Program-made: the position numbers and the translations under genes
DNA from: an uncultured bacterium
Lineage (GTDB): Bacteria > Myxococcota_A > Polyangia > Polyangiales > Houyiibacteriaceae
Length of the DNA: 53,544 bases
Direction of reading: 5' to 3'
Assembly: GCA_965369435.1 (NCBI GenBank)
Contig: CBDURI010000001.1
Location: 1-53,544, forward strand
Part shown: positions 11,382 to 33,350 of the stretch, in pieces
Numbering within the stretch: the first letter of the stretch is position 1
Layout: each line of letters starts with the position of its first letter
The notes under the pieces: model-generated
Database searches by the model: none
The model's input: the letters and a program-made list of their open reading frames with translations, nothing else
Told to the model about the DNA's origin: nothing

Positions 11382-13817
11382 ATGACGACGGTCGGTGGGG
11401 GTGTCAAAGGACTGGTCGCGCGCGCGCAGCGCGAGGCGCAGAGGCGCGCGCAAACCCCGTCTACGGCCTATCTGTTGCTCGTCATGCTGCAGGCCGCGGG
11501 CCCGATGGGGAAGCTCCTATCCGAGCTCGGGGTGAGGGAGAGCGATCTCCTGAGCGCGCTTCGCGTGGTGGACTTGGAACCGACGAGCGCGCTCGAGCGA
11601 GCCGTGGAGCGCGCTTATCGGCTTGCCAAGGCCACCGGGGCTGCGGAGGTGCTCCCGGCGCACCTGCTCCTCGCCATCGTGCGCGATTCCCGGAGCGCTG
11701 CCCATCGCAGCCTCGAACTGATCGGCGCGGGCTCCCGGAGCGTCCAAGGGGCGGTGCAGAGTGCCCTTCAGCCCGAAGATCCGCACACGGCGCCAACCTC
11801 TACGTACATTCGACCCGCCGCGTCGCTCGGGGCCAGGCCCGAGGCGAAGCCCTCACGTCCGTCCGCGCGCCGAGCGCTAGAGCCGGCGCCGCTGATCGAG
11901 CTGCGTGTCGAGAAACCAAAAGATGAGCCCATGATCGAAGCGCCGACCGAAGCGCCGATCGAGGCGCCGATCGAGGTGCCCGAGGACGAGCTGATCGTTC
12001 CGTCGTCGTCGCCGTTCGCTCTCGATGCCGGCAAGTATCCGATGCTTGCCAAGCTCGGACGCAACCTGACGGAGATGGCTTCGCTGGGGCATATCGATGA
12101 GGTGATCGGTCGTGACGACGAGATCGAGCGACTCCTCGACGTGTTGGCCCGCAGGCGCTCGAACAATCCGATTCTCGTGGGGCCGCCGGGCGTGGGGAAG
12201 ACCGCGATCGTCGAAGGACTCGCGCGAAGATTGGCGCAAGGCGGCCAAGGGGTGCGTGGGCTCGAGGGCACGATCCTCGTCGAGCTTTCCGCCGGGGCGT
12301 TGGTTTCGGGTACGGGGGTGCGCGGCGCGCTTTCAGAGCGGATGCGGCAGTTACAGTTCGAGGTGAAGCGGGCGAACGGCAAGATCGTGCTCTTCCTCGA
12401 TGAGGTGCACACGCTGTTCATCGGAGGAGACGCGCCGGACGATCTCGCGCATGAGCTCAAGGCGTCGCTGGCGCGCGGTGAGCTACCGTGCATCGGCGCG
12501 ACCACCGATGTCGAGTACCGCAAGTACGTCGAGCGAGACGCGGCCCTCGCGCGTCGCTTCTCGCCAATTCACGTCGAAGAGCCTGCTCCCGAGGACGCAA
12601 TCGAGATTCTGCGCGGGATCGCGCCTCGCTACGAGGTTCACCACGGCATCGCGTACGAACCGGCGGCGGTCGAGTCCGCGGTCGAGCTCTCGGTGCGGTA
12701 CATGTCCGAGCAGACACTTCCCGACAAGGCGATCGGTCTCCTAGATTTGGCGGGCGCACGAACGCGTCGGCGGGGTGGCTCAGTCGTCGATCGCGAAGCC
12801 GTGGCGCAGGTCGTCGCAGAGAAGGCGCGCGTTCCGGTCGAGCGGCTGTTGGTGACCGATTCGCAGAAGCTCCTCGAGCTCGAGCAGCACCTCGCGGAGC
12901 ACGTCGTCGGTCACGTCGACGTCATGACCCGGGTCTCTGATGCGCTTCGTAAAGGAGCTGCCGGTTTCCACGGGCAGCGACCGCTTGCCACGTTCTTGTT
13001 CCTTGGCCCGACGGGCGTTGGAAAGACCGAAACCGCACGCGCCTTGAACGAGCTTTTCTTCATGGGGTGCCCGATGACTCGTGTTGACATGAGCGAGCTC
13101 AGCGAGTCTCACGCTGTGGCCAAGTTGATCGGTGCCCCTCCTGGCTACATCGGCCACGAGACCGGCGGTATGCTCACCGAGGCGATACGCCATAGGCCCT
13201 ACCAGCTCGTCTTGCTCGACGAGATCGAAAAGGCCCACATGGACGTGCTCCAGTCGCTGCTCCCGCTCCTCGAAGATGGCCGCCTGACCGACGGCAAGGG
13301 CCGAACCGTCGATTGCACACACACCATTGTCGTCATGACTTCCAACCTCGGGGCGGAGCACTCTCAGCGCGGTTCGGGGTCGATTGGTTTCCGCGGCGCC
13401 TCGGGGGGATCGGACGAGGGCTTTTCGGCAGCCATGGAAGCTGCGCGTCGCGCGCTTCCGCCCGAGCTTTGGAACCGCATCGACGAGCCGTTGTTCTTCG
13501 GCCCACTCAGTCGTGACGAGGTCCGTGAAATCGCCGGCCGGATGGTTGCGGGTGTGGTACGGCAGCTCCGCGAGCGACAGGGAGTCGAGCTCAGCATCGA
13601 TGCCAGCGCCATCGATACGCTCCTCACGCTTGGCGGATACGACGCAGAGCTCGGCGCACGCCCGATGCGTCGCGCGATCGGGCGCATGGTCGAGGCCCCG
13701 TTGGCGGCTGCGATTCTTGGCGGCGACTTCCAACGAGGGGATCGCATCCTCGCAGTGGGCGATGCAGACGGCGTTCGCTTCGAGCCGCTCGAAGGGTCGG
13801 TCGAAGCCGCCGAGTGA
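11382..13817 (+). CDS. ClpA/ClpC-type AAA+ unfoldase (Clp_N domain plus two AAA modules)
   Basis: D1 has Walker A GPPGVGKTAIVEGLA and Walker B VLFLDEVHTL. D2 has Walker A GPTGVGKTETARAL and Walker B LVLLDEIEKAH. The short D1-D2 junction has no ClpB-type M domain. An IGF tripeptide (GSGSIGFRG) sits where ClpP-docking loops lie. Confidence 0.9.
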   Translation: MTTVGGGVKGLVARAQREAQRRAQTPSTAYLLLVMLQAAGPMGKLLSELGVRESDLLSALRVVDLEPTSALERAVERAYRLAKATGAAEVLPAHLLLAIVRDSRSAAHRSLELIGAGSRSVQGAVQSALQPEDPHTAPTSTYIRPAASLGARPEAKPSRPSARRALEPAPLIELRVEKPKDEPMIEAPTEAPIEAPIEVPEDELIVPSSSPFALDAGKYPMLAKLGRNLTEMASLGHIDEVIGRDDEIERLLDVLARRRSNNPILVGPPGVGKTAIVEGLARRLAQGGQGVRGLEGTILVELSAGALVSGTGVRGALSERMRQLQFEVKRANGKIVLFLDEVHTLFIGGDAPDDLAHELKASLARGELPCIGATTDVEYRKYVERDAALARRFSPIHVEEPAPEDAIEILRGIAPRYEVHHGIAYEPAAVESAVELSVRYMSEQTLPDKAIGLLDLAGARTRRRGGSVVDREAVAQVVAEKARVPVERLLVTDSQKLLELEQHLAEHVVGHVDVMTRVSDALRKGAAGFHGQRPLATFLFLGPTGVGKTETARALNELFFMGCPMTRVDMSELSESHAVAKLIGAPPGYIGHETGGMLTEAIRHRPYQLVLLDEIEKAHMDVLQSLLPLLEDGRLTDGKGRTVDCTHTIVVMTSNLGAEHSQRGSGSIGFRGASGGSDEGFSAAMEAARRALPPELWNRIDEPLFFGPLSRDEVREIAGRMVAGVVRQLRERQGVELSIDASAIDTLLTLGGYDAELGARPMRRAIGRMVEAPLAAAILGGDFQRGDRILAVGDADGVRFEPLEGSVEAAE
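11937..11984. repeat. 4 x 12-nt tandem repeat encoding (E-A/V-P-x)4 in the Clp N-domain/D1 linker
   Basis: Read directly: gaagcgccgacc gaagcgccgatc gaggcgccgatc gaggtgcccgag. It encodes EAPTEAPIEAPIEVPE. Confidence 0.9.
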
Positions 13818-13826
13818 CGTCCGGGT

Positions 13827-14624
13827 TTACTCCCTCGTCGCGCCAACGATCTTCGATGCCTTCGCCCGCGACAAGCCCGCGGCCCGCGCGCATTTGACGA
13901 TGACGGGAACGACGGCATCGTAGGCGGAGAGCGCATCGCGGCCAACACGTCGGAGCGCGTGTCGGTGGTTCACCACCGCTTCGGTGTCACCGCGTGCGAT
14001 CGGCCCCGTGAGGGCGCCGGGCACACCTAGACTCTGGACGTTCTCGCCCACGCTCTTGAGCAGGCCGCCAATCGCTCGCTCGGCAGCGCGCTTGTCGAAT
14101 CCGAGTCGTTCGAGCACGCCGACCGACACGAACGCCAGCGCCGCAGCGCCATTTGCGACGAGCGCGGCGGCGGCATGGTAGCTCCCGTCGCCGGTCCGAG
14201 CGACGATGATGCGCGCGTCGCACGCGTGCGCGAGGCGCCTGCTCGTCGCGACTGCGCGCCGGGAGCCGCTCACGGTAAAGGTGGTGCCTCGAAGACTGGG
14301 GTTGCTGCGCTTGCTCGGGAACGAAACCAGGGGGTGCATGACGCCCACGGCGGCACCACGCCTCTCACAAGACACGAGATCCCCGGTTCCTCGGGCGCCG
14401 GCGCAGTGCAGCACCGTTGCACTGGGACTCAGGTCCGGGGCCACCCTCTCGGCGACTGTTTCGATCGCCTCGTCCGGGACCGCGAGGACGACTGCGTCGG
14501 CGCGCTGCACACTCGAAGACTTCCAGCGACGACCGGCCGCAATCACGGCGTGCTGCTCGTGCGACTTGAGGGAACGATGAAGCGCGCGTCCGACCCGTCC
14601 GCGCCCGATGATGAGGATGTTCAT
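13827..14624 (-). CDS. Rossmann-like plus DUF2520 domain protein (putative oxidoreductase)
   Basis: ORF 13827..15005 trimmed to ATG 14624. MNILIIGRGRVGRAL is a dinucleotide-binding GxGxxG. The ATG overlaps the nadD stop as ATGA. Confidence 0.7.
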   Translation of the reverse strand: MNILIIGRGRVGRALHRSLKSHEQHAVIAAGRRWKSSSVQRADAVVLAVPDEAIETVAERVAPDLSPSATVLHCAGARGTGDLVSCERRGAAVGVMHPLVSFPSKRSNPSLRGTTFTVSGSRRAVATSRRLAHACDARIIVARTGDGSYHAAAALVANGAAALAFVSVGVLERLGFDKRAAERAIGGLLKSVGENVQSLGVPGALTGPIARGDTEAVVNHRHALRRVGRDALSAYDAVVPVIVKCARAAGLSRAKASKIVGATRE

Positions 14625-15184
14625 CCCTGGCCTTGGTATAGCCCCTGCGATCGGATGTGCTCGATGACGGAGTCCGGCACGAGACCGGTCAGGTCGCGTG
14701 CGCTTGCGAGCCCTGAGCGAAGCTCGGTCGAGTTGATATTGGGAATCGAGATGGGGCAACCCTCCGGCAGCGCAGAGCCCTGTCGACCCACCACGAGTGG
14801 GGGCGCGATCTTCACGACCTCGTCCCACCGGTGCCATCGATCGGTCGTCGGCAGGACGTCGGCGCCGATGAGGAGCCGGAACGCTGTGTCGGAATGCTCG
14901 TTCACGAGGGTGCGGAGGGTATGTAGCGTCCTGCTGGTGCCTCCAAGGCGCTGCTCGATGTCGGAGATCTCGACGGCTTGAAAAATGGAGAATGCGAGCT
15001 TGCACATCGACATGCGCTGTTCGAACGCCGCGCAGTGCTCCTTGTCGAATGCATGCTTCCAGGTTGGGACGACCCAGACAGCATCGACCTCGGTAGCCGA
15101 AAGCGTCCAGGCGACGGATAGCACGTGCCCCAAATGGGGCGGGTCGAAGCTTCCTCCATAGATTGCGACCCGGCGTGCCGTCAC
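14621..15184 (-). CDS. nadD: nicotinate-nucleotide adenylyltransferase
   Basis: VAIYGGSFDPPHLGHV is the (H/T)xGH nucleotidyltransferase motif, with a later ISSTxxR-like INSTELRSG. The GTG start at 15184 overlaps the upstream stop as GTGA. The ORF-track extension to 15703 overlaps the upstream gene and is rejected. Confidence 0.85.
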   Translation of the reverse strand: MTARRVAIYGGSFDPPHLGHVLSVAWTLSATEVDAVWVVPTWKHAFDKEHCAAFEQRMSMCKLAFSIFQAVEISDIEQRLGGTSRTLHTLRTLVNEHSDTAFRLLIGADVLPTTDRWHRWDEVVKIAPPLVVGRQGSALPEGCPISIPNINSTELRSGLASARDLTGLVPDSVIEHIRSQGLYQGQG

Positions 15185-15774
15185 GGCGCCACCATCACCT
15201 TGGCGCCGCGGCCTTGGATCGGCTCGCTCCACGAGACCTCTCCGCCGAGGTCGATCGCCTGCAACACGACCCCGCCTCTTTCCGATCGGTCGTCGAGAAG
15301 GCCGACGTGCCCGGCATCGAGAGGTCCTGGACTGAAGAAGCACCGTGGCCCAAAACGTTTGAACATCAGCGTCGTCGCATCGCCGTAGACCACGACGTTG
15401 GAGTTGATGACGTCCTCTTCGCCAATGGTGGCTTTGTTCCGCACGATGAGGACGATGCGATCGTCGAGCATTTCCATCGCACGCCGCGGCGCCGGTGGCG
15501 CGACCCCCAGTTTGGCGAGGTAGCGCGCGCCCCGGAGCATTCGAAGAACCTCTTCGATGTCTTCCGCGGAGCCGGTGGCCGCCACCTCGGCGACTCGACG
15601 CTCGATCATCTGGGCGTCCTCCCCGGACTCGTGCGCAGCGACGAAGTCCCGAAGTGCCTCGTCTTCGCCGAGATAGATGACCGCGTCGACCTCCAGGTCG
15701 CACACGAGCAGCTTGGCGGCCTGCTCGAGAGCGCCCGCGTCCGATTTGGCAGGACCGATGAAACCCATCCGCAT
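15181..15774 (-). CDS. YfcE/MJ0936-like metallophosphoesterase-fold protein with substituted metal ligands
   Basis: The block order matches small MPEs. MRMGFIGPAKSD stands for MKIGxxSDTHG, AVIYLGED for xxIHxGD, VVVYGDAT for VVxGHTH and FFSPGP for xINPGS. The His/Asp ligand positions are replaced in each block. Confidence 0.6.
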   Translation of the reverse strand: MRMGFIGPAKSDAGALEQAAKLLVCDLEVDAVIYLGEDEALRDFVAAHESGEDAQMIERRVAEVAATGSAEDIEEVLRMLRGARYLAKLGVAPPAPRRAMEMLDDRIVLIVRNKATIGEEDVINSNVVVYGDATTLMFKRFGPRCFFSPGPLDAGHVGLLDDRSERGGVVLQAIDLGGEVSWSEPIQGRGAKVMVAP

Positions 15775-15778
15775 CGCT

Positions 15779-18700
15779 TTAGGGATCTACACCAGCTTGG
15801 GCCCGGGCTTCAAAATGTGCGTCGCTAATCGCAAAACGAACCATCGTCCACGCCTCGGGAGTCTCCCGGATCGCGCGAAGGCGGCCGGCGTCGCTCTGAG
15901 GCACGTCGTGCCCGGCGATCTTGAGGAGCGCGTTGACGGCAGAGGGAACGTCCCCCGTTAGGGTCAGGGCTGCGCGATCGCCGAGCTCCGAGATGGCGAA
16001 TGGAACGGCCCGCGTGGAAAATCCCCTGTTCCCCTGCAATTCGAGCACCAAGCTCTCGACCTCATCCCGCCAGCGCCGGGGCACGGCCTTCAGCAGCTTC
16101 TTGCGCAGGTCCTGCAACTGTCGAGATTCGGGTTGCTGTTCGCGGCTCGCCGCGTGACCTTGTAGCAGAGCGAGCAAAGCCGCATCGAGGTCCTCCGGTC
16201 GGGCGCGCAGGGCGGGTGCAAGATGGTTACTCGCGACTTTCAGCGCCCGTGCGAACAGGAACACCCGTTCCCGTGGAGTGGTCGCTTCGTGAAGTGTCCC
16301 TCCGACCACGATCGTTGGAGGGTCGCCGGCGATGGGCATGCAAGCGGCGGGGGCGACAGGCGTCACTCTCAAGCGTGGCTCGCTGATGCCCATGGCTTCG
16401 GCGACGGCGCCGGCTTCTTCGACCAGTCCCCTGTGCGGCCCCGATGGTCGGCGAATGCGCCACGCGCTGGTGTCGAAGGGCAACACTTTGTCGAACGAGT
16501 GCTCACATAGCGAAAAGAGACGCCGGACTGTTTGCGGCAGACCGGGTGGCGCCACGATGGCGTCGACGACACTCGACAATGGGACCTTGGCTTCGCCGAA
16601 GGCTTCGCCGCGCGGAGTGGCGTCGCCTTCGAAGAGTGAGGCTGGATGGCCCACGGCAATGGCTGCACTGGCGGCGCACGAAGCGGGGCCAGCACCGAGT
16701 CGCCGTTTGAGCACCCGCACAAGCGTCGTCCACAGGCCTTCGTCGCCGGGATTCGAATCGATGGCAGTCCGCAGGTCACTGGCTGCGCGGTTCAAGTGCA
16801 TCGCCTCGGCGGGGCCGGCGCCCTGGCGTTGGTAGTAGTCCGCGACTGCGAGGATCACGTCGGGCTCTGTGGGCTGCTCGACCCGAAGACTTTCGAGCAT
16901 CAGCTCGGCCTGCCGTGCTTGTCCGGCCGACTCGACAGCTCTCGCGAGTCGAATGCGATAGTCGCGGTCCGCGGCGCTGCCGTCGGCTCGCCGAACGAGC
17001 TCCTCGAGCAGCCTCGCGGCTTCGGGAGCCTTGCCCTGGCGGCTCAGTACGGATGCGAGGCGGTCCAGTGTTTGGATATGTGTGGGCGCGAGCTTTGCCA
17101 CCTGCCGCAAGGAGGCTTCGGCGCGCGGAAGGTCCTGCAGATGCAGGTCGTACGTCTCCGCGAGCTGCGAAAATGCCCAAATCTGTTCATCGGTGCTGCG
17201 GTTCAAGCGCGCGATGCGAATCAGTGCCTCGGCGGCGCCTTGCCAGTTCTCCGCGGTACGGTGGGTGTCCACGAGCTCTTGAAGCGCCGCGAAGTGATGG
17301 GGGTCGAGCTCCAGGCATTCGTCCAACGCGTCGGTGACGCCCTGAACGTCACCGCGTTCACGGCGCTGGCGAGCCTGCTCGAGCAGGAGTCCCACGAGCG
17401 TCGGGGTGTCGGCGCCCGCATCGATGCGGGCGGCCGTGAGAGCGGCCAGCGAGTCGAGCTGACCCTGGCGGCGGTAGAGGCCGGCGAGGCGCCGGTAGAC
17501 GTCGAGGTAGGTGAGCTCGCATTCGGCCGCGGCGACCCACGCCTCGACGGCGCGCGCCTGATCGTCGAGCTCTTCCTCGAAGATGCAGGCAGCTTCCCGC
17601 CATAGGGACGCAGCGCGGTGCGCGTCCTTCGCGCGTCCTGCGGCGTCCTGATAGCTGCTGGCTGCTTCCTCCCATCGCTTCGCCCCATGAAGTAGGCGGG
17701 CTTCCCCCTCGCGCGCCAACGGGTGACGCGGTGCGGCGTCCAAGACTTCAAGCGCCCGCTCCGGATCTCCCAATTGCTGCAGCACCTCGGCGGTGTCGAG
17801 CGCAAGCGCGCCGCGCCCGAGGTCATCATCGAGGGCTGCCGCGAGGGCGATCAGCGCCTGCAAGCCGAGCAGGGAATCTCCCCTTGCGTACGTCGCACCC
17901 AGCACCTGTCTCGCCAAGCCCGAGTCGGCCTCGAGCGCGTCGTCGATGCTGCACAGGAGCCTGTCGACGTCGGTCTGCGTGGTGTCCGGGTCCGACTTGA
18001 GGAGCTCGAGAACCAGTCTGTGCCGCGCGAGCCGGTCTGCTGAGTCGGCGGGTAGAGCTTTCGAGAGGCGGTGTGCGCTCGACCGGATACGCTCGGGGTC
18101 GTCCTCGCGCAGCGCGTCCCATTCGAGAGCGCGCGCGGTGGGGATGTGGTCTGGGCGCAACTCGGCGATCGATTGCAAGGAAAGCCGCGCGCTTTGCATG
18201 TCGCGCCGAGCGAGCCGATCGACTTCGGCCATGGCGCAAAACGCGCCGAGCCGCTCTGCGTCGTCCGTGGCCTCGCGCGCGCGCCGCATGGCCGAGTCGG
18301 CCAGGCGCGCGAACTCGGACGCGTGGAGCTCGGCGTCCTTTCGTTGTACCCGAATCGCTTCGTCGTCTGGGCTCGCCAAGGAGGCCTCTCGGAGCACCTT
18401 GGCCGCCCGACCCGGAAGGCCGGCCGAGCGGTACGCCGCGGCGGCCCGCTCGAGGTACGGAAGGAGGTCCAGTTGTCGCGCGGTGGCGACCATGAGGTCT
18501 CCGCCCGTCTCGGTGGCGCCACCGGCCGCTTCGAACAGGTGCTCAACGAGGAGGGGGTCCGGAGACTCGTGATTCAATGCGGCTCTGGTGCGCGCCAAAC
18601 GTTCGCCTCCTTCATCGACGGAGGGCGCCCATAGGGCCGCGCGCAGCGTGCCCGACACCGCTTCTGCCGGGTCGAGTCGAGCCTGTGTGGCGGCGCTGGC

Positions 18701-20443
18701 GGCTCGAGCGTCCAGCGAACCGAGGTTGTCTTCGAGCTCCCATAACGCAGGCCAGTAGTCCGCCTGCTCTTTCAGAGCGTCCTCGCATGCGCTGATGGCC
18801 GCCTCCGTGCCCGGGGTCGCGAGCCGCGCGGCCATCGTGAAAGCAAACGCGCTTCGCGCTCCGGTGGTGGCCCGGCCTTCGCCCGTCCACCGCTGCGCGC
18901 GACGCGCGAGCTCTTCGTCGTCGAGAAGGAGAGCCCTGCCGATCCACGGGTTGGCCGGAGCGCGTTCCTCCGCCCGCAGCAATGCCGTTCGGCGGTTGGT
19001 CACGCCGGTAGCATCAGCGACTTCGGCAATCGCCAGGGCTGCTGCGGCAGCGAGATCGTCGGGAGATTCGTCGGCCTCGCGCTGCAGTGCAGCGACGAAT
19101 GCTGCGCCGTCTCCATTGCGAGCCGCCTCGTCGGCGCGCGCCACGCTCGATGAAGCGCTTGCTGCCTCGTCGGACATCGTTTCGAGCAGTCCCGGGACCG
19201 TGGCTCCGTCCTCGGTGTCGGCCGTCATCAAGAGCCGCCAAGCTTGTACGTAGGCGCCGAGACGCGGCTCCGAATGCGCAGCGTGTGACGCTTGTTCGTA
19301 GCCGGCTTGGTCGCCCCGCTCTGCGTGCAGACGTGCACGCCGCGCGTTGCTGACCGCGCGCAGTTCCGGGGATTGGCCCGACATGCGTTCCATTGTCTCG
19401 ATCGCCCGCTGCGGGTCACCGGCAAGCGCTGCCGCCTCGGCAAGCGTCCAGAGAGTGGCGGTGTCTTCCGATGGGCCGCGGACCGTTCGGAGCAGCGCGG
19501 CGGCGACTGACGGAGAGGAGTGCTCTGCTGCGGCCTCGAGCGCTTCGCGGCTGGCGTCGGTGGCGCCGAGGTCATGCGAGGCTCGAATCACGCCAAAATG
19601 TGCCGCGAGGCGTGCCGGTTGAAGCTCGACGACGCGGCCGAATGCCTCTTTCGCGGCGTCCGGCGCGTTGGTGCTCTCGAACAGCTGTGCCGCGTGCAGA
19701 ACCATGACCGCCTGGGCCTCGGCGTCCGGCCATTGTTCGGCCGCGTCTGCGATGGCCTCCGCCGCACGCGTTGCGTTCCCTCGCGCCAGGCGGGCCGAGG
19801 CTGCCAGTATGCTGGCGACGAAATCGTCTTGTTGAAGCCCGGCTGCCCGTGTGGCCGCCTGTCCGGCGGCCGCGGCGTCCCCCAGCTTCGACAGTCGGAT
19901 GTGGGCGAGCAATTTGAGTGCGGACGCCCGATCGCTCACGCTCAGTTCGAGCCCCGCCTCCTTCTCTAGCGCGCTTGCGGCGGCCGCCCAGTCGTCGCGC
20001 CGCATGGCGTGTCGTCGCAGAGCCCGCAGCACGACGACGTCCCGGGCGTCGGCGGCCAGCGCATCGGTGTAGTTGCGGTCAGCAGCCTCGTCGTTGCCCA
20101 GTTGTTCGTGAAGCTCCGCGGCCGAGCTCAGAAGCCGAGCACGTGCGGAGCCAACGGCGCGTTCCGCCAGGCCCTCGAGTAGCTCGATGCGGCGGCCCCT
20201 GGTCTGCGGGGTGTCGCCGACGAGGGGCAGGGCCTCGTGCCGTGCACTGTCTTGGAACACCGTACGTTGTGCCGCTTGTGCGCCGGCGTCCGAGGGGTCC
20301 GGCGGGCGGCTGATGCGCTTTGCCTGGGGCCCCGTTCGAGTTGCGACGAAGTCATCGAGAAGCGAGGAAATCGCATCGTCGTCGAAATCAAAAGAGGGCG
20401 CGCCCGACTCTCGGTTTGCCGCAGACAGATCGTCCTCAGCCAT
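15779..20443 (-). CDS. giant TPR-like helical-repeat protein (1554 aa) with a non-TPR C-terminal module; paralog of the upstream gene
   Basis: Uninterrupted 4.67 kb ORF. Its ATG 20443 overlaps the upstream stop by 8 nt. It is Ala/Leu/Arg-rich with many TPR-like units (e.g. EASLRQVAKLAPTHIQ) and has no signal peptide or TM segment. Confidence 0.85.
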   Translation of the reverse strand: MAEDDLSAANRESGAPSFDFDDDAISSLLDDFVATRTGPQAKRISRPPDPSDAGAQAAQRTVFQDSARHEALPLVGDTPQTRGRRIELLEGLAERAVGSARARLLSSAAELHEQLGNDEAADRNYTDALAADARDVVVLRALRRHAMRRDDWAAAASALEKEAGLELSVSDRASALKLLAHIRLSKLGDAAAAGQAATRAAGLQQDDFVASILAASARLARGNATRAAEAIADAAEQWPDAEAQAVMVLHAAQLFESTNAPDAAKEAFGRVVELQPARLAAHFGVIRASHDLGATDASREALEAAAEHSSPSVAAALLRTVRGPSEDTATLWTLAEAAALAGDPQRAIETMERMSGQSPELRAVSNARRARLHAERGDQAGYEQASHAAHSEPRLGAYVQAWRLLMTADTEDGATVPGLLETMSDEAASASSSVARADEAARNGDGAAFVAALQREADESPDDLAAAAALAIAEVADATGVTNRRTALLRAEERAPANPWIGRALLLDDEELARRAQRWTGEGRATTGARSAFAFTMAARLATPGTEAAISACEDALKEQADYWPALWELEDNLGSLDARAASAATQARLDPAEAVSGTLRAALWAPSVDEGGERLARTRAALNHESPDPLLVEHLFEAAGGATETGGDLMVATARQLDLLPYLERAAAAYRSAGLPGRAAKVLREASLASPDDEAIRVQRKDAELHASEFARLADSAMRRAREATDDAERLGAFCAMAEVDRLARRDMQSARLSLQSIAELRPDHIPTARALEWDALREDDPERIRSSAHRLSKALPADSADRLARHRLVLELLKSDPDTTQTDVDRLLCSIDDALEADSGLARQVLGATYARGDSLLGLQALIALAAALDDDLGRGALALDTAEVLQQLGDPERALEVLDAAPRHPLAREGEARLLHGAKRWEEAASSYQDAAGRAKDAHRAASLWREAACIFEEELDDQARAVEAWVAAAECELTYLDVYRRLAGLYRRQGQLDSLAALTAARIDAGADTPTLVGLLLEQARQRRERGDVQGVTDALDECLELDPHHFAALQELVDTHRTAENWQGAAEALIRIARLNRSTDEQIWAFSQLAETYDLHLQDLPRAEASLRQVAKLAPTHIQTLDRLASVLSRQGKAPEAARLLEELVRRADGSAADRDYRIRLARAVESAGQARQAELMLESLRVEQPTEPDVILAVADYYQRQGAGPAEAMHLNRAASDLRTAIDSNPGDEGLWTTLVRVLKRRLGAGPASCAASAAIAVGHPASLFEGDATPRGEAFGEAKVPLSSVVDAIVAPPGLPQTVRRLFSLCEHSFDKVLPFDTSAWRIRRPSGPHRGLVEEAGAVAEAMGISEPRLRVTPVAPAACMPIAGDPPTIVVGGTLHEATTPRERVFLFARALKVASNHLAPALRARPEDLDAALLALLQGHAASREQQPESRQLQDLRKKLLKAVPRRWRDEVESLVLELQGNRGFSTRAVPFAISELGDRAALTLTGDVPSAVNALLKIAGHDVPQSDAGRLRAIRETPEAWTMVRFAISDAHFEARAQAGVDP

Positions 20444-23400
20444 TGGCCCCCCACAGAGGTGATTCGGCCTCGAGCCAGAATCGAAGAAGGTCGATCCCGC
20501 GCGCAGATGTCCTGAGCGTGCCGAGTGTGACCCGGCCGTTCAGCAACGTCGCGATGGCGGCGGCGATGTCGCCCGATGCCAAGAGCCCGGCCCGGTCGGC
20601 GCTTTGCTGGAGGCTTCGGGCGAACGCGAGCAGCGACGCGGGCGCGAATTGCACGCCGTCGACAGCTTCGTGCACGGCCTTGCGAGTCGCTCTTCGAAGC
20701 TTGACGTCGATCGCAGGTAGGGCCGGCTCTCCAAGCCCAATCTCGCAGCGAGCGATACGGAGAACCGCCGCCAATGTGCCCGCGACCTTCTGGGGTGTTT
20801 CATCGAGAAGCGCCGCAGCGCCGCGTGGTGCTGCCCATGCGAGACGGCCTGCAACGAATCGCCCCGCGCCATCGAGGCCCTCCTGCGCGACGCGAGGGAC
20901 CGTCCAGTCGATCTCGCCGTCGCGGCCGGTGCGTGCGATCAATGTTTCGATCTCATCGGACAGCCCAATCGACCCCACACGGGCGCCGAAGCGCTGGGAG
21001 ATTCGCTCGAGCTCACCGTAGATGGGATCGCTCGGTGCGGCCTTCTTGGTGCGGAGACGCTCGTTCGACAGAGCCGGGCCCGCTCGAAGCACGACTTGCT
21101 GCAAAACCGGATCGGCGTCGCGATCCCACACGGCGGCCACGGAGACGTCCTGGAGATTCGCCACGCCGCCGTCGTCGCCCGATGACGCGAGCCCGAGTGC
21201 GCTCTGTACCGCGCGTACCGCCGCCGCGCGCCGCGTATCTCTTCTCCACGTGGCGGACTTGCCGAGCCCTTCGAGAAGCGGCGCATCGAGCTCGCCGCCC
21301 TCGATACGCGTCCAAAGTGCGCGCTCGTAGGAGCTCACCGCCGCGTCCTTCTCGGGTTCGTCGAGGAGCTCGACCAAGTGCGTGATTGCGGTCGCGTGCG
21401 ACGGCTCTGCATCGAGTGCGCGCCTGTATGCGCTGAGCGCGGCCCCACGGTTGTCGAAGCCTGCTTCGAGCGCCCCGATTCGCACCCATATTTGCGCTTC
21501 GGCGAGGCCGAGGGCTTCGATCGCGCGCAACTCTTCGAGCGCTGCGCCGTTGTTTTCGAGATGCGTTTCGAGAAAATCGGCGGCGGCGAGGTGGGCGACC
21601 CTCCGTTGTTCTTCGGGGATTCCCGTTTTGGATAGCTTTTGCAGGCATTCGATCGCCTCGGGCCATTGTTCGAGCGAAACGTGAACCTCCGCGGCGAGGG
21701 CCAAGGCGCCTGAATGCTGGGGCTGCACGGTGAAAAGCTCGTCGAGAACATCGAGCGCGCCGGGTCGGTCGCTGAACCCGCGAAGCAGACGGGCCCGTTC
21801 GTAGAGCAGAGCCGGGCGATCCTTTGGGCCGCCCAGGGCGAGTCGGTTGGAGACGAGCGCTTCGAGAGCTTCGGCGTCCTCTTGTTCGGCCAGTAGGTCG
21901 TGCAGCCGGCGGAAGGCGATGTCGCGGGAGGGGTCTTCTTCGAGTGCGCGGCGCAAGAGGTCTTCGGCCTGCGGGTACTGCTCGAGGCAATCCAAGCGAA
22001 CGACGCCCGCCTCCTCCAACAGATCGGCCCTGAGGCTGCCATCGACGAACGGCGCGAGCCGCTCGCAAGCTTGAGCCACCAATGGCCACTGCCCAGCTTG
22101 GCGCGCGGCGCTTCGAAGCGTTTCCCACAGTGCGAGGTCATCGGGTCGCTCGTCGACTGCCTTGCTGAGCAAGGCAACCGCCTCGGCGCCCCGATCCGCA
22201 TCGACGAGCGCGCGGCAATGTGCCGCCTCGAGTGCGCCCCGTCCGACCCCGTCACTGTGGCCCAATCGTCTCTCGAGCGCGCTGGCGCGAAACCCGGCGT
22301 CGTCGCCAGGTGCCAGGGCTTCGTCTAGGGCAATGGCTGCGTCGGGGTGGGTCTTGGCGAGCGCCTCGGCTTCTTGGGCGAGCATGAAGAGATCGTCTGC
22401 GGCTCCGGTCCCTTGGGCGACGCGCGAGGCCCGCAGGCCCTGAAGTAGCGCTCCGGCTCGCAAGGCCTCGGTTGGCGCCAGCGCGGCGAGTTCGAGCCAA
22501 GCGTCACCGGCCAGAGCGCCTTGTGCACCGAGCGACCCGCGCAGCGCTCCATACGCCGCGCCAAACCGGCCAAACGTCTCGGGGGGCGCGATGCCGGCGT
22601 CCGCGAGGACCTCTTCGGCGGCCGAGCGCTGATCGATCTTGGTGAGCCGAGTGGGTGTCGACAGTAGAGCAACGGCCGCGGCGACTGCGGCGCTGGGGTG
22701 CTCGAGCCCTTGTTCGTAGGCCGCGCCTGCATCGGCAGCGCCGTCCGAGCTCAGGGCGTCGCCGTGAAGCAAGGCGAAGAGCTCTGGTACTCCTCCGCCG
22801 AGATCGGCGTTTGAGAGAAGCGCGTAGGCTCGCACTCTTGCGCCGACGTCATCTCGACGCCGAGCGACGTCGAGCAGGGCGAGGGCGGCCGAGGGCGACT
22901 CCGGCGCTTCTGCCAATGCTTGCTCGTACGCACGCTGGGCCGCCGCCAGATTTTCGTTCCGTTCGGCCGTTGCGCCGGCGAGGAGAAGCGAAACCTCCCC
23001 AAGGGCGGCGCCCGGCTCACCGAGAGACCGCTCACGAGCCAAGGACACCACGTCTTCGGGACGTCCTCCTTCGCGCAGCACGTCGGCGAGCAACATGACG
23101 ATGTAGCGGTCGTCGGGCGCGGCACCCAGCGCCTCCCGAAGAACACGCTCCGCCGCCCCCCAGTCCCCGCTGCGCGCGTAGGCATGCCCCGCCGCGCACA
23201 GGTGCCCGACGCGTGCGTCTTCAGCGTTCAGCCGGGCGATGGACTCGTGGGCTTTGGCTAGCAAGCTGGTGTTGCCGGTCCACGCGGCCTGGGCTCGAGC
23301 GACATGCCCGGCCCATGCCCGGCAGTCGGCGTCCTCGATGCCGTCGCGTAGGAGCAGCTGCGCATCCTGAGTGGCCCCGAGGGCATGTTGGGTCACGTCG

Positions 23401-24905
23401 TATCTAGTGAAGGCAAGCGTCGCCCGCTCCGCAGGCTCGATGTCGCATTGGATCAGCTCATCGCACCGTTGGAGGATCTCACGGGGTTGTGCGGCGGCGA
23501 GCGCTGCACCCAGAGCCTCGCGCAGGATTCGTTCTTTCGACGTCGCGGCAGTGCGACTGGCTTCGCTGTAGAGCGCTTGCGCCTGTGTCGAGGCGGTCGA
23601 GCTTCCGGTCGCCAACTGCGCCGCGTGCCACGTCACTCGAGCGCGCGAGTCTCCCTCCGCACTTTGTGCCTGCGCGCGAAGTCGCTCGGAGCGTTCGGCA
23701 TGCGCGGAGGCGTCCCCGCACCGGATCAACCCGACGTCGAGCGCCGCTTGCGCATAGGCGGAATCGGGGTACCGGGTGGCCGCGTCACGGAGTGTGTCCA
23801 AGGCGCGCTGGCGATCTTCGCTCGACAGTGCGCGACGCACTTGGTGCGCCACGAACGCCGGATCCGCTGGCGCCGTGGAGAGGAACCAACCGGACGCGCG
23901 CTCCAACGCAGCAGGCTCGTTGCGACATTGCTCGATGCGCAACGCTTGCAAACGAATGGCCCTCCGGTCTGGGAACAGACGCAGCGCCGCTTCGAGGTAG
24001 CCCGCGGCAGCATCCGAGTCGTCGAGCCGCGTCGCGCTATACGCGGCCGCCTCTTGCCACAGGAATGCCGCCATTGAGACACGCTCGCCCTCGGGGACCG
24101 AAAGGTTCATGGGGTCGGGCGGCTCGTCCGCGTCGGCCGCCGCTTCGAGCAGGCGCGCCATCGACGTCGTCGCACGGATCAAGACGTCCCAGCGTTCGTG
24201 TTCCCCGGCTACCCGGCGCTGCAGCGACCTGGCTTGCCAGACGAGTGCCTCGGAGTCGCAAGCGCGTTCGAGCGCCTCGATTGCGTCGTCCGGGTGGCCC
24301 GCCTCTAGTTCGCTCAGGGCAACGTCCATCCACAGGGCCGCTCGAAGGCTCGCGTCTGCTGCGTGCTCCGCCTGGGCGCGCAACGCGTGTCGTAGCGCCT
24401 CCTGGTCACCTCGCGCCTCCGCAAGCCACTCGAGAATCAGAGCCGGTACGACCGGCGCCGGAGATCGCGCGATCGCCTCTTGCAGAAGCGACACCCAATC
24501 CTCCGATCGAACGGCCAAGTCCATGAGCGCCGCACCACGGACAGCCGCGCTCGTCGCCGTGGCTACTTGCTCGGACTGAAGCGCGGATAGGTTGTGTCCG
24601 TTGTTGGCGCGCTCCGCGATGCGAAGTTGGGCGATCAGGGCTGGTTGGAAACCGGGCGCCGCCGCGTGCGATTGCCCGTAGTGATCGATCGCGTCCGGGA
24701 CACGATCGAGCTCGTGCTCGTAGAGTGCGGCGACTTGGTAGAGGATCGCCGCCTGGTTCGCCGGCTCGGTTTCTGCGTCGAGCTCCCGGCGCAGGTTCGC
24801 GATACGCATCTCGACCAAATCGAGCTTGCGTGCAGCCCCCGGCGGGCGTGAAGCACCTGGCGGGCGTGAAGCGCCTGGTGGGGGTGGTGGCGGATTTGCG
24901 TTCAT
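20436..24905 (-). CDS. giant TPR-like helical-repeat protein (1489 aa) with a non-TPR C-terminal module
   Basis: ORF 20436..25496 trimmed to ATG 24905 (MNANPPPPPPGASRPPGASRPP...). The upstream 197 codons overlap the SDR gene in another frame. TPR-like units run throughout. Confidence 0.85.
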   Translation of the reverse strand: MNANPPPPPPGASRPPGASRPPGAARKLDLVEMRIANLRRELDAETEPANQAAILYQVAALYEHELDRVPDAIDHYGQSHAAAPGFQPALIAQLRIAERANNGHNLSALQSEQVATATSAAVRGAALMDLAVRSEDWVSLLQEAIARSPAPVVPALILEWLAEARGDQEALRHALRAQAEHAADASLRAALWMDVALSELEAGHPDDAIEALERACDSEALVWQARSLQRRVAGEHERWDVLIRATTSMARLLEAAADADEPPDPMNLSVPEGERVSMAAFLWQEAAAYSATRLDDSDAAAGYLEAALRLFPDRRAIRLQALRIEQCRNEPAALERASGWFLSTAPADPAFVAHQVRRALSSEDRQRALDTLRDAATRYPDSAYAQAALDVGLIRCGDASAHAERSERLRAQAQSAEGDSRARVTWHAAQLATGSSTASTQAQALYSEASRTAATSKERILREALGAALAAAQPREILQRCDELIQCDIEPAERATLAFTRYDVTQHALGATQDAQLLLRDGIEDADCRAWAGHVARAQAAWTGNTSLLAKAHESIARLNAEDARVGHLCAAGHAYARSGDWGAAERVLREALGAAPDDRYIVMLLADVLREGGRPEDVVSLARERSLGEPGAALGEVSLLLAGATAERNENLAAAQRAYEQALAEAPESPSAALALLDVARRRDDVGARVRAYALLSNADLGGGVPELFALLHGDALSSDGAADAGAAYEQGLEHPSAAVAAAVALLSTPTRLTKIDQRSAAEEVLADAGIAPPETFGRFGAAYGALRGSLGAQGALAGDAWLELAALAPTEALRAGALLQGLRASRVAQGTGAADDLFMLAQEAEALAKTHPDAAIALDEALAPGDDAGFRASALERRLGHSDGVGRGALEAAHCRALVDADRGAEAVALLSKAVDERPDDLALWETLRSAARQAGQWPLVAQACERLAPFVDGSLRADLLEEAGVVRLDCLEQYPQAEDLLRRALEEDPSRDIAFRRLHDLLAEQEDAEALEALVSNRLALGGPKDRPALLYERARLLRGFSDRPGALDVLDELFTVQPQHSGALALAAEVHVSLEQWPEAIECLQKLSKTGIPEEQRRVAHLAAADFLETHLENNGAALEELRAIEALGLAEAQIWVRIGALEAGFDNRGAALSAYRRALDAEPSHATAITHLVELLDEPEKDAAVSSYERALWTRIEGGELDAPLLEGLGKSATWRRDTRRAAAVRAVQSALGLASSGDDGGVANLQDVSVAAVWDRDADPVLQQVVLRAGPALSNERLRTKKAAPSDPIYGELERISQRFGARVGSIGLSDEIETLIARTGRDGEIDWTVPRVAQEGLDGAGRFVAGRLAWAAPRGAAALLDETPQKVAGTLAAVLRIARCEIGLGEPALPAIDVKLRRATRKAVHEAVDGVQFAPASLLAFARSLQQSADRAGLLASGDIAAAIATLLNGRVTLGTLRTSARGIDLLRFWLEAESPLWGANG
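24841..24876. repeat. 2 x 18-nt tandem repeat encoding GASRPP GASRPP at the N-terminus of the 1489-aa TPR protein
   Basis: Read directly: ggcgggcgtgaagcacct ggcgggcgtgaagcgcct, followed by a degenerate G-rich copy that encodes the Pro run. Confidence 0.85.
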
Positions 24906-24919
24906 CGGCCGCCCCCCGG

Positions 24920-25681
24920 CTATGCGAGTGTCCAACCGCCGTCGATGACCATGACATCTCCCGTCACATAATCCGATTCGTCGGAAGCCAAGAAGACGGC
25001 TCCTCCTGCAATGTCTCGGGGCTGCCCGACCCGGCCCGCCGCCGTTCGATTGACGATGCTCGATCGAATGGAGTCGTTGTCGACCAACACCTGCGCAAAC
25101 TTGGTTTCGATCAAGCCCGGTGCGATCGCGTTGACTCGAATGCCCGCGCCGCCAAGCTCCATCGCCAGTGTCTTGGTCATCGAGATCACCGCAGCCTTGG
25201 TCATTGCGTAGACGCCCTGCATCGGCGCGGCCATCGTGCCCACGACGCTCGCGATGTTCACGACCGACCCTTTGGCATTCCGTTGCTGCAAGTGGCCCGC
25301 CACGAGCTGGATCATTCCGAAATAGCCCTTCACGTTGACCTCGAAGGTTTTGTCCCAGGCGCCCTCGTCTATTGTCAGCATCGGCCCGAAGTGTGGGTTG
25401 GTCGCGGCGTTGTTCACCAGGATGTCCACCTTGTCGTAGGCCTTCAAGGCCGCTGCGAGCATCTCTTCGCGCTGACTGCGGTGCCCGGTGTGGCATGCGA
25501 TCGGGGTTGCCTCGCCGCCGTTTGCGCGGATCTCGTCGGCCACGGCCTGCAGGCCTTCGATCTTTCGCGAAACGAGGATCACCTTGGCCCCCTCTTCGGC
25601 CATGTAGCCGGCGATGGCGGCGCCGATGCCTCGGCTCGCCCCTGTGACGATCGCCACCTTGTCCCGTAGCCGCTCACTCAT
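24920..25681 (-). CDS. short-chain dehydrogenase/reductase (SDR) family oxidoreductase
   Basis: ATG 25681 is preceded by AAGGAGG. VAIVTGASRGIGAAIA is the TGxxxGxG motif, NNAA is present, and YAMTKAAV is the YxxxK motif. Confidence 0.9.
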   Translation of the reverse strand: MSERLRDKVAIVTGASRGIGAAIAGYMAEEGAKVILVSRKIEGLQAVADEIRANGGEATPIACHTGHRSQREEMLAAALKAYDKVDILVNNAATNPHFGPMLTIDEGAWDKTFEVNVKGYFGMIQLVAGHLQQRNAKGSVVNIASVVGTMAAPMQGVYAMTKAAVISMTKTLAMELGGAGIRVNAIAPGLIETKFAQVLVDNDSIRSSIVNRTAAGRVGQPRDIAGGAVFLASDESDYVTGDVMVIDGGWTLA

Positions 25682-25844
25682 CCTGTCCCCTCCTTTGGTT
25701 TGACACGTATAGCGCTCCGCAGGGTGGTTTTGCCAGCGCGATCTGCACGGGGCTTGCGCCGGCCGTGTCCTGAGCAAAACTAGCCTGTCCTGGTTTGCCA
25801 GAGAGGTCGCCCTGACGCTGTCCTACGACATTGCCGCGATTATC

Positions 25845-27522: not shown

Positions 27523-29658
27523 TTGCTACGCGAGAAGCATCTGGCCCTCGCTCCAGTGGATTTGCGTGGCGCGCTCGCCGACGCCTCGGTTGCGCTCCTC
27601 ATCGTGGGTGTCGCGGGTGTCTTTCTTGCGACCCGCCGCTGGTGGGGGCGCGCGCTCGGGCTCGTGACGGTGCTCTCTCTCCTGTGGGTGAGCTTTGCGA
27701 TGTACGAGTTCATCTCGGTCTTCGATTCGCTCTATGCACTCAGCCATGCGGGATTCCTCGCCGACTCCACGTTTGTCGGCGGGTCGGTGCGTCACCTGCG
27801 GCACCCGGTGCTTCTCGGTTCACTCACGGCCTTGGCCGTCGCGGCGGGGTTGTGGGCGCGTGTCCCGGGGCAGCGCTGGTGGCGGTGGTGGGGCGCGGCC
27901 TTCGCCTTGAGCGTGTTCGGGCAGTTCGTCATTCCGGCCTCTCCCGGGCACGACGAGTGGCGACAGCGGCACGCGGTGCAGGCGAATTTCTCCTTTTGGC
28001 CGGCGTTCGGGGCGACGGGCTCGGGTTCCATCAGAGCGGACCTGGGCGATGTTTTTCGAGGCGACCTGAGCGGAAAGAGATGGACAGGTCCCCTGTCCGA
28101 ACGGCCCAACGTCCTGCTCATTCTGATCGAAGCGGCCTCGGGCGCGCACCTGCCCTCGGTTGCCGCCGCGCAGGGGGTCCAAAGTGGGACCACGATGCCT
28201 AAGCTCGATGCGCTGGCCCAGCGCCACATTTTTTTTACCCGGCTCATCTCGCACCAGAGGCAAACCAACCGCGGTGAGTACGGGATCCTGTGCGGGGACT
28301 ATCCGAAGCTCCTGACCGATCAATCCAAGATGAGCGAACAGGTCTACGGCGCGGCGCATCGATGCCTTCCCGAGGTCCTCCGTGATGAGGGGTATGCGAC
28401 GGCCTATATCCAATCGGCGCCGCTCGCCTTCATGATGAAGGACCAGTTCATGAAGAAGGCTGGCTTCGAGGAACTGGTCGGAGACCCTTGGTTCGACCAG
28501 AGCTACGCGCGCACCGATTGGGGCGTCGACGACAAGGCGTTCTTCGAGCAGTCCCTCCGCCGGGTGCTCGAGCTGCACGCGGGCGAGCGGCCCTTTTTTG
28601 CGACGCTGCTGACCGTCGGCACGCATCATCCGTTTACGGTTCCAGATGGAGCCACGGCCGAGGGAGCGCGGAGTCGGCAGGAGCGTGCTTTTCGATGGGC
28701 GGACGACGCCCTCGCCGAGTTCGTGACCCAACTCGAACAGCACGGGGTGCTTCGCGATACCGTCGTGATCATCACGTCGGACGAGTCGACTGGGCTCGTT
28801 CAGGCAGCGAACCCGACGCAGAGGTTGCTTTCGCAAAGCTGGTCGTTCGCAGTCGTCATGATGCCCGAGCCGCAGCCGAAGCGCATCGACACGCTCTACG
28901 CGCACGTCGACACCGCTCTTTCGGTGATGGATCTCCTCGGCTTGGAGCTGCAGGCAAAGCGTTTCGTCGGACGAAGTTGGTTCCGAGAGTACGACACCCC
29001 GCGTCACTTGTTCGCGGGGAACACGTATGCCCGAAGCGTGCTCATGTGGCAGCCGTCCGGCACCGCCATCGTGTGTAGCGAGTCGTTTCGGAGCTGCATG
29101 CGCTCGATTCCCGTCGACGATCTGGTGTTCGGTCCGGAGCGGCAGAGCGAGCCAGCGTCGGCCCGTGAGCGGCAGTTCTTGACCGAAGTGGCCCGACTCA
29201 CGCGCTCCGGCCGCGGAGACATGACGGAGGCGGGGGAGCTCGATCTGTGGACCGAGGGCGTCATATCGGTGCCGGCCGACGCGGGCAAGAAACTTCTAAT
29301 CGGTGGCCAATACCTACGCGTTCCGCGTGACACTACGCTCCGGGTGGACCTGGATCTAGAGGTCACGGGCGAACAAGGGACGATCGATTTTCACCAGGAT
29401 GTCTTTCTCAATGGGTACGAGAAGTTCGCGCGCAATGGAATTCAAATCCGGGATGGGGAGCGTTGGCGACTGAGCTACGAGATCGGGGTTCCAGACGACT
29501 CGAGTCAATTGGTGGTGCAATTGTACGCGACGACGATCTCCGGCGAGGCGGCGGAGATCGAGTTTCACGACGCACGCTTGTCGATGACGGCCGGCCGTGT
29601 GAAGTCGCCAAAGGTAGTCGTCATCGTGGACGAGGTGTCGCCCGCCGATCCTCGGTGA
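27523..29658 (+). CDS. LTA-synthase/phosphoglycerol-transferase-like membrane sulfatase-family enzyme with a C-terminal beta-rich domain
   Basis: N-terminal TM helices are followed by an alkaline-phosphatase-superfamily core (NVLLILIEAASG, QTNRGEYGILCG with a Thr nucleophile candidate, TVGTHHPF). The TTG start is uncertain. Confidence 0.8.
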   Translation: MLREKHLALAPVDLRGALADASVALLIVGVAGVFLATRRWWGRALGLVTVLSLLWVSFAMYEFISVFDSLYALSHAGFLADSTFVGGSVRHLRHPVLLGSLTALAVAAGLWARVPGQRWWRWWGAAFALSVFGQFVIPASPGHDEWRQRHAVQANFSFWPAFGATGSGSIRADLGDVFRGDLSGKRWTGPLSERPNVLLILIEAASGAHLPSVAAAQGVQSGTTMPKLDALAQRHIFFTRLISHQRQTNRGEYGILCGDYPKLLTDQSKMSEQVYGAAHRCLPEVLRDEGYATAYIQSAPLAFMMKDQFMKKAGFEELVGDPWFDQSYARTDWGVDDKAFFEQSLRRVLELHAGERPFFATLLTVGTHHPFTVPDGATAEGARSRQERAFRWADDALAEFVTQLEQHGVLRDTVVIITSDESTGLVQAANPTQRLLSQSWSFAVVMMPEPQPKRIDTLYAHVDTALSVMDLLGLELQAKRFVGRSWFREYDTPRHLFAGNTYARSVLMWQPSGTAIVCSESFRSCMRSIPVDDLVFGPERQSEPASARERQFLTEVARLTRSGRGDMTEAGELDLWTEGVISVPADAGKKLLIGGQYLRVPRDTTLRVDLDLEVTGEQGTIDFHQDVFLNGYEKFARNGIQIRDGERWRLSYEIGVPDDSSQLVVQLYATTISGEAAEIEFHDARLSMTAGRVKSPKVVVIVDEVSPADPR

Positions 29659-33317: not shown

Positions 33318-33350
33318 CCCGGGGCAGTATGGCCGCTTAGGCCGGGGGCG

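Follow-up and report, generated by a model that had tools for sequence, protein, structure and literature searches.

Tandem giant TPR proteins of an uncultured Myxococcota bacterium share a C-terminal module that may be a zincin fold without its zinc site

The window analyzed here is the whole of a 53,544-nucleotide (nt) stretch, positions 1 to 53,544 of contig CBDURI010000001.1 (assembly GCA_965369435.1), from an uncultured bacterium of the Houyiibacteriaceae (Myxococcota_A, Polyangia, Polyangiales). It carries two adjacent genes, here called A (20436-24905) and B (15779-20443), that encode cytoplasmic tetratricopeptide repeat (TPR) solenoid proteins of 1489 and 1554 amino acids (aa), respectively, each with a C-terminal module that is not of TPR type. 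We favor, as reasonably probable, the reading that A and B are ancient tandem duplicates whose TPR solenoids are capped by pseudo-zincin domains and would serve together as a non-catalytic hetero-scaffold. All coordinates are window positions and all features lie on the minus strand, unless stated otherwise.

A naive longest-open-reading-frame (ORF) call would extend gene A to 20436-25496 and a potential length of 1686 aa. The GC content at third codon positions (GC3) is 0.45 in this 5' extension (24906-25496, 197 open codons) vs. 0.74 downstream, and the extension overlaps, in another frame, a genuine gene of the short-chain dehydrogenase/reductase (SDR) family at 24920-25777; the start of A was therefore set at 24905. 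This agrees with a preliminary description of the window, made from its letters and ORFs, in which the length of B, all quoted peptides and the 8 nt shared by the A stop and the B start (ATGGCTGA, 20436-20443) were likewise exact. Such an overlap suggests translational coupling. Both products are rich in Ala, Leu and Arg (20.7, 13.0 and 9.3 % in A; 20.3, 12.0 and 10.2 % in B), and A has a Pro-rich N-terminus. Multiple TPR profiles matched past their Pfam cut-offs in A (TPR_14 with E 1e-13, as well as TPR_19 and TPR_2) and, more weakly, in B (ARM_TT21_5th with E 9e-8, TPR_17 with E 2e-5), with no other Pfam family found in either protein. Neither protein has a signal-like N-terminus or a transmembrane segment (maximum Kyte-Doolittle 19-mer values of 1.33 and 1.47), as had been noted before.

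Orthologues of A and B were gathered from 53 related loci (A orthologues occur in 36 loci), and their full-length alignments were compared by hhalign, which aligned the two families colinearly (A 81-1482 with B 13-1543, 1286 columns) at a probability of 99.7 % and E 7.5e-27. BLASTP paired equivalent positions within the TPR regions (A 998-1146 with B 983-1132, 29 % identity, E 2e-10). By these alignments A and B are full-length tandem paralogs, which extends the paralogy originally claimed to the whole length of the proteins. The C-terminal modules occupy residues ~1265-1489 of A (20439-21113; 12 close homologues) and 1292-1554 of B (15782-16570; 29 close homologues). Their kinship, which had been proposed by eye, is barely detected by BLASTP of the two tails (a single 33-aa segment, E 0.011), and hhalign with shallow profiles gave 4.9 %, a value superseded by the comparison of a deeper B-type profile (48 sequences, ≤ 55 % identity) with an A-type profile (12 sequences), which aligned over 212 columns at 95.6 % (E 1.2e-8). 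In distant lineages, the products of the genes that immediately precede the B-type gene matched both the A-type and the B-type profiles in hmmsearch, the latter with E-values of 3e-18, 1e-15, 3e-12, and 4e-7. The profile comparisons place the two modules (~220-265 residues, non-TPR) in one superfamily.

The motif HExxH is absent from the entire sequences of A and B. In B, the counterpart of this motif would be RALKV (residues 1399-1403, 16235-16249) within F-L-x-A-R-A-L-K, which hhalign sets on HEISH of HtpX, and in A it would be RLAWA (residues 1354-1358, 20832-20846) within F-x-A-G-R-L-A-W-A, on the helix that bears HExxH in zincins. The preliminary description had named RALKV and GRLAW as the replacements; the first is exact, while the second has to be moved by one residue, as the motif Arg of A and that of B are equivalent by profile alignment. 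The helix is well conserved, with the Phe of the B-type form F-L-[LF]-A-R-A-L-K found in 138 and the Arg in 139 of 140 representatives, and the Arg of the A-type form in 35 of 37 orthologues (Gln in the other two). The B family has several additional Arg residues that hardly vary. Homologues with an intact HExxH at the aligned site, which would have made these ordinary peptidases, were sought among 152 modules and none was found; one module has an HExxH, located elsewhere. The third zinc ligand of M48 peptidases is the Glu of E-x-x-A-D, invariant in four E. coli M48 members. A helix that resembles, by eye only, the M48 E-x-x-A-D-r-x-G helix was located in A at residues 1435-1446 (SADRAGLLASGD, 20568-20603), where it lacks the ligand Glu, and its counterpart in B lies at residues 1486-1498 (ELGDRAALTLTGD, 15950-15988). 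The third-ligand position, four residues before the Asp, is occupied by Gln or His in A and is variable in B.

The M48-like helix order seen by eye in the preliminary description was followed up with profiles and predicted structures. PF01435 did not match full-length A or B (E ≤ 1) or any of 25 diverse modules (E ≤ 10), and PDB sequences, searched with single sequences as well as with profiles, yielded no match beyond the TPR region. With HExxH, the third-ligand Glu and a significant profile match all lacking, A and B are, judged from their sequences, not members of M48. A shallow profile of the four E. coli M48 sequences gave less than 1 % in hhalign, and a homologue search seeded with their alignment retrieved only near-identical enterobacterial BepA and HtpX, without additional diversity. 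A deeper M48 profile was assembled from 91 sequences of viral and metagenomic contigs, and its alignment with a 66-sequence profile of the superfamily reached P 0.0017 (probability 15.6 %), compared to P 0.06 for a reversed control, with the same register obtained for three different B-type query profiles. This alignment spans the pre-sheet helix, three strands and the long helix, places R1399-A-L-K-V of B on H139-E-I-S-H of HtpX with a common Glu seven residues upstream, which is the register that the preliminary description had proposed for B, and thereby pairs the invariant Arg of the family with the first HExxH His.

In the AlphaFold models, which are of low to medium confidence, each module has a first helix and three strands that lead into a long helix with the F-x-x-x-R motif, followed in the A module by a helical bundle, a predicted topology that fits the mixed sheet, active-site helix and glutamate helix of zincins. 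When the models were compared by Foldseek with 350,542 PDB chains, the top match of the B module was the HtpX domain 3cqb (probabilities of 0.99 and 0.98, E 0.11-0.39; TM-score 0.55-0.59 normalized to the target, root-mean-square deviation of 3.0 Å over 81 columns). It was accompanied by selecase, jannalysin, ZMPSTE24, BlaR1, MATCAP, SPRTN, and lethal factor, and zincins made up, by our own count, ~30 of the 50 best matches. For the A module, BlaR1, BepA, Ste24, and lethal factor headed the list. The structural comparison and the deep profile thus provide two weak, independent and mutually consistent lines of evidence, from which we consider it probable that the module has a zincin fold.

The exhaustive hidden Markov model (HMM) search with the B-type module retrieved 871 representative clusters (50 % identity) at E ≤ 1e-3 and 521 at E ≤ 1e-10, and the module nearly always forms the C-terminal end of a protein 1500-2200 aa long. 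The sources that were checked are all of Myxococcota type, i.e., metagenome-assembled genomes (MAGs) labeled Myxococcota, Polyangiaceae or "Deltaproteobacteria", and the retrieved clusters are named "hypothetical protein" or carry a generic TPR label. Neither the A-type nor the B-type module matched any entry in Pfam, NCBIfam, PADLOC or the PDB sequences, and the literature searched held no description of the family, which is accordingly not described in the libraries and papers covered here. Membership in an anti-phage defense system was considered and rejected, as PADLOC recognized none of A, B, the 197-aa protein encoded directly downstream of B, and the DUF2520 protein of the same cluster.

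Protein identity in the syntenic loci falls to 40 % with the gene order retained, and between the most divergent loci sampled the B module retains nearly the same identity as nadD, one of its neighbors (56 % vs. 57 %), which indicates purifying selection. The adjacency of A and B, proposed as a check in the preliminary description, was found in every locus with enough sequence. It extends to five of five distant contexts (L058, L059, L061, L062, and a contig without DNA sequence), where a TPR gene lies directly upstream of the B-type gene; this upstream partner carries the module in all four contexts with DNA, and the same junction shows a 4-nt stop/start overlap in distant lineages. The giant size of A is not universal, since the gene in its position in L058 (8258-9703 of that locus) encodes 481 aa, with the module and a short TPR stretch, next to a B-type partner of 2073 aa. 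The closest relative of the region is found in a Guaymas-basin "Deltaproteobacteria" MAG (L001, QMMB01000261.1), with 95-99 % protein identity across it, and the related complete MAG chromosomes L004 and L013 (CP070713.1, CP070650.1) measure 2.8-3.5 Mb, which is small for Myxococcota.

The disordered N-terminus of B-type proteins carries a conserved acidic/aromatic motif, in B at 20348-20395 (SFDFDDDAISSLLDDF, in the window form FDFDDDAISSLLDDF), with the family-wide form DLDWDDALxDWE and followed by PMPQ and LYRPP motifs. W[DE] occurs within the first 110 residues in 52 of 94 full-length B-type members vs. 6 of 94 for a control segment from the protein interior. Motifs of a Trp with acidic residues are bound by some TPR domains, and the motif of B resembles those.

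In the scenario that we propose, A and B would have arisen by an ancient tandem duplication of a whole gene, each protein consisting of a cytoplasmic TPR solenoid of ~1250 residues capped by the conserved alpha/beta domain of ~220-265 residues. The cap would be a zincin (gluzincin) fold, nearest to the catalytic cores of M48, M56 and minigluzincin peptidases, in which the two zinc-binding His, the third ligand and the catalytic Glu are gone and a near-invariant Arg occupies the position of the first His. A domain with these losses could not act as a zinc peptidase. Its former substrate cleft, now presumably lined with conserved Arg, would probably serve as a surface that binds peptides or another anionic ligand, so that the role of the cap would be binding, not catalysis. 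The overlapping stop and start codons, together with the strict co-occurrence of the two genes, suggest that A and B are made in equal amounts and act jointly as a hetero-oligomeric scaffold or adaptor, with the 197-aa protein of the same operon as a possible third subunit.

Several results weigh against this scenario. Taken singly, none of the lines of evidence for the zincin fold reaches significance: the Foldseek matches of both modules all remain above E 0.1, the hhalign probability is 16 %, and the comparison of HMM with sequence gave no signal, as the family scored no better than shuffled or reversed sequences in hmmsearch --max with an M48 HMM built from the four E. coli sequences. The AlphaFold models, built from shallow alignments, are of low confidence for B (predicted local distance difference test, pLDDT, of 55) and of medium confidence for A (pLDDT 69, predicted TM-score 0.74). 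The downstream ExxAD helix falls in the expected register (GDRAALTLTGD/ADAGSAKLVG) at P 0.16, worse than the reversed control. The M48-like helix order of the preliminary description is partly supported: in its favor stand the register of the sheet and the HExxH helix of B (P 0.0017 in the profile alignment) and the zincins at the head of both Foldseek lists, against it the PF01435 search, the M48 HMM and the ExxAD helix. Within the family, the "ADR" Asp drifts to Leu or Tyr in distant A-type members, and an Arg-Asp salt bridge in place of the metal site would be lineage-specific at most. The motif Arg is itself replaced by Gln in a few A-type members, and with both changes the proposed binding cleft is not uniformly conserved. 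Finally, we infer the formation of an A-B complex solely from the arrangement of the genes.

The cap could instead be a lineage-specific alpha/beta domain unrelated to metallopeptidases, with a likeness to zincins that arose by chance or convergence. The lack of Pfam and PDB sequence matches, the M48 HMM scores at the level of shuffled sequences, the shallow-profile hhalign result below 1 % and the Foldseek E-values above 0.1 from low-confidence models are all as this explanation would have them. It does not readily account for two independently modeled paralogs that both retrieve M48, M56 and minigluzincin proteases first among all chains compared, nor for a deep-profile register that is exactly the predicted one, with equal spacing from strand to helix and a common Glu seven residues before the His or Arg; we regard it as rather unlikely, although worth keeping in view.

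Much less credible is an active enzyme with a non-canonical site, e.g., a hydrolase that uses a conserved Arg, Glu or His in place of zinc. The B family does have near-invariant polar residues that could serve such a site (a Glu seven positions ahead of the Arg, four Arg residues and a C-terminal SDxHFEAR), but the conserved polar sets differ between the A and B types, and among distant A-type members they drift. Moreover, Tyr can take the place of the His in SDxHFEAR, and a conserved Cys is present in just 112 of 140 representatives. No catalytic triad or metal-binding set common to the superfamily could be recognized, and a Cys/His site or other alternative active site was rejected because the candidate residues are not conserved across it. 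That the long ORFs of A and B are mere artefacts of a GC-rich genome, as the many long shadow ORFs on both strands and a GC3 of 0.74-0.75, slightly under that of the neighboring genes, might suggest, has a negligible probability and is ruled out by hundreds of homologues with conserved length and architecture and by the synteny kept down to 40 % protein identity, in line with the significant Pfam TPR matches and a codon-position GC that is uniform along both genes and contrasts with the non-coding extension upstream of A.

Among known systems, E. coli BepA also joins an M48-type domain and TPRs in one polypeptide, and BepA chains were among the top Foldseek matches of the A module. BepA is, however, a periplasmic protein of 487 aa with a signal peptide, an active site (HExxH and Glu) and the peptidase domain in front of the TPRs, while A and B have the reverse order, a TPR part of ~1250 residues, a cytoplasmic location with no signal peptide, and no catalytic residues. 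The pair is thus not BepA-like in domain order, compartment, size or activity. The best structural matches of the B module, i.e., the soluble domain of HtpX and the minigluzincins selecase and projannalysin, agree with it in the register of the sheet and HExxH helix (HtpX), but these proteins cleave peptides with a zinc site of HExxH and a Glu ligand and have no significant sequence similarity to it.

Inactivated zincin-like domains have been reused for binding in the N-terminal domain of anthrax lethal factor, which binds protective antigen, and in the related domain of Certhrax. The likeness to the proposed caps lies in the concept of a zincin without HExxH as a binding module, and chains of these toxins occur in the Foldseek lists of both models; they differ in being secreted toxins of an unrelated lineage without a TPR fusion. 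To our knowledge, no paired, cytoplasmic inactivated zincin domain fused to giant TPR proteins has been known. If the pseudo-zincin reading is true, the pair would show that in the bacterial cytoplasm, too, a protease fold has been put to new use as the binding module of a giant scaffold, and if it is wrong, the module remains a conserved domain new to the libraries, one for which a family should be defined. All members of the large B-type family (871 clusters at 50 % identity) are uncharacterized, which leaves some of the largest and best-conserved genes of many Myxococcota genomes without an assigned function.

A and B lie within a cluster of six genes (13827-25777) separated by overlaps or by gaps of ≤ 12 nt. 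The first is the SDR-family oxidoreductase gene (Pfam adh_short_C2, E 5e-63; NCBIfam SDR models), which stops 12 nt before the start of A and is its immediate upstream neighbor in ~40 related loci. Downstream of B follow the gene of the conserved 197-aa protein (15181-15774), which starts 4 nt after the B stop, nadD (nicotinate-nucleotide adenylyltransferase, 14621-15184; TIGR00482, 124 bits vs. a cut-off of 112), the GTG start of which overlaps the preceding stop (GTGA), and a Rossmann/DUF2520 protein gene (13827-14624; Pfam DUF2520, E 1e-19) with an ATGA overlap with nadD. No terminator-like site was found on the minus strand across the cluster and Rfam returned nothing in the window; the six genes probably form one operon of ~12 kb. 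The order of the window, i.e., a Na/Ca exchanger gene (opposite strand), SDR, A, B, 197-aa, nadD, DUF2520, and a ClpA/B-like ATPase gene (opposite strand), recurs in ~45 species-level loci. Most of the distant members retain the 197-aa gene, nadD and DUF2520; two do not. Wherever a related locus extends far enough, the 197-aa gene comes next after B, and among the distant ones it follows B in two of the four sequenced loci and in one contig without DNA sequence.

The 197-aa protein had no match in Pfam, NCBIfam or the PDB. Its profile could be aligned in register with E. coli YfcE by hhalign (E 0.02), with VVVYGDAT...FFSPGP on VLVYGHTH...HFNPGS, and at the paired motifs (GHTH/GDAT and NPGS/SPGP) the metal-ligand positions are substituted, so it may have a YfcE/Vps29-type phosphoesterase fold without the metal site. 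Vps29 likewise has a phosphoesterase fold and, bound to an alpha-solenoid, acts as a scaffold subunit; given the weak YfcE match and no significant database match, the analogy of a solenoid with a dead phosphoesterase is speculative. Improbable as we judge it, a wider possibility is that the 197-aa protein joins A and B in a housekeeping machine of the cytoplasm, so far met only in Myxococcota-type assemblies. It would consist entirely of scaffolds and dead enzyme folds (two giant solenoids with pseudo-zincin caps and one pseudo-phosphoesterase) and be loosely analogous to eukaryotic assemblies of a solenoid with a Vps29-type subunit, in which Arg-lined clefts would capture acidic motifs (e.g., the DLDWDDALxDWE N-terminus of B) or clients and might pass the clients to the syntenic ClpA/B-like unfoldase.

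This ClpA/B-type double-AAA+ ATPase (811 aa, 11382-13817, plus strand) is convergent to the operon and adjoins it in the ~45 loci as well as in L058 and L061, an arrangement that may reflect a functional link or mere conserved housekeeping synteny. Near the cluster, two sulfatase-family genes (27523-29658, plus strand; 29621-31702, minus strand) and a PMT_2 glycosyltransferase-like gene (31635-33350, minus strand) were also observed.

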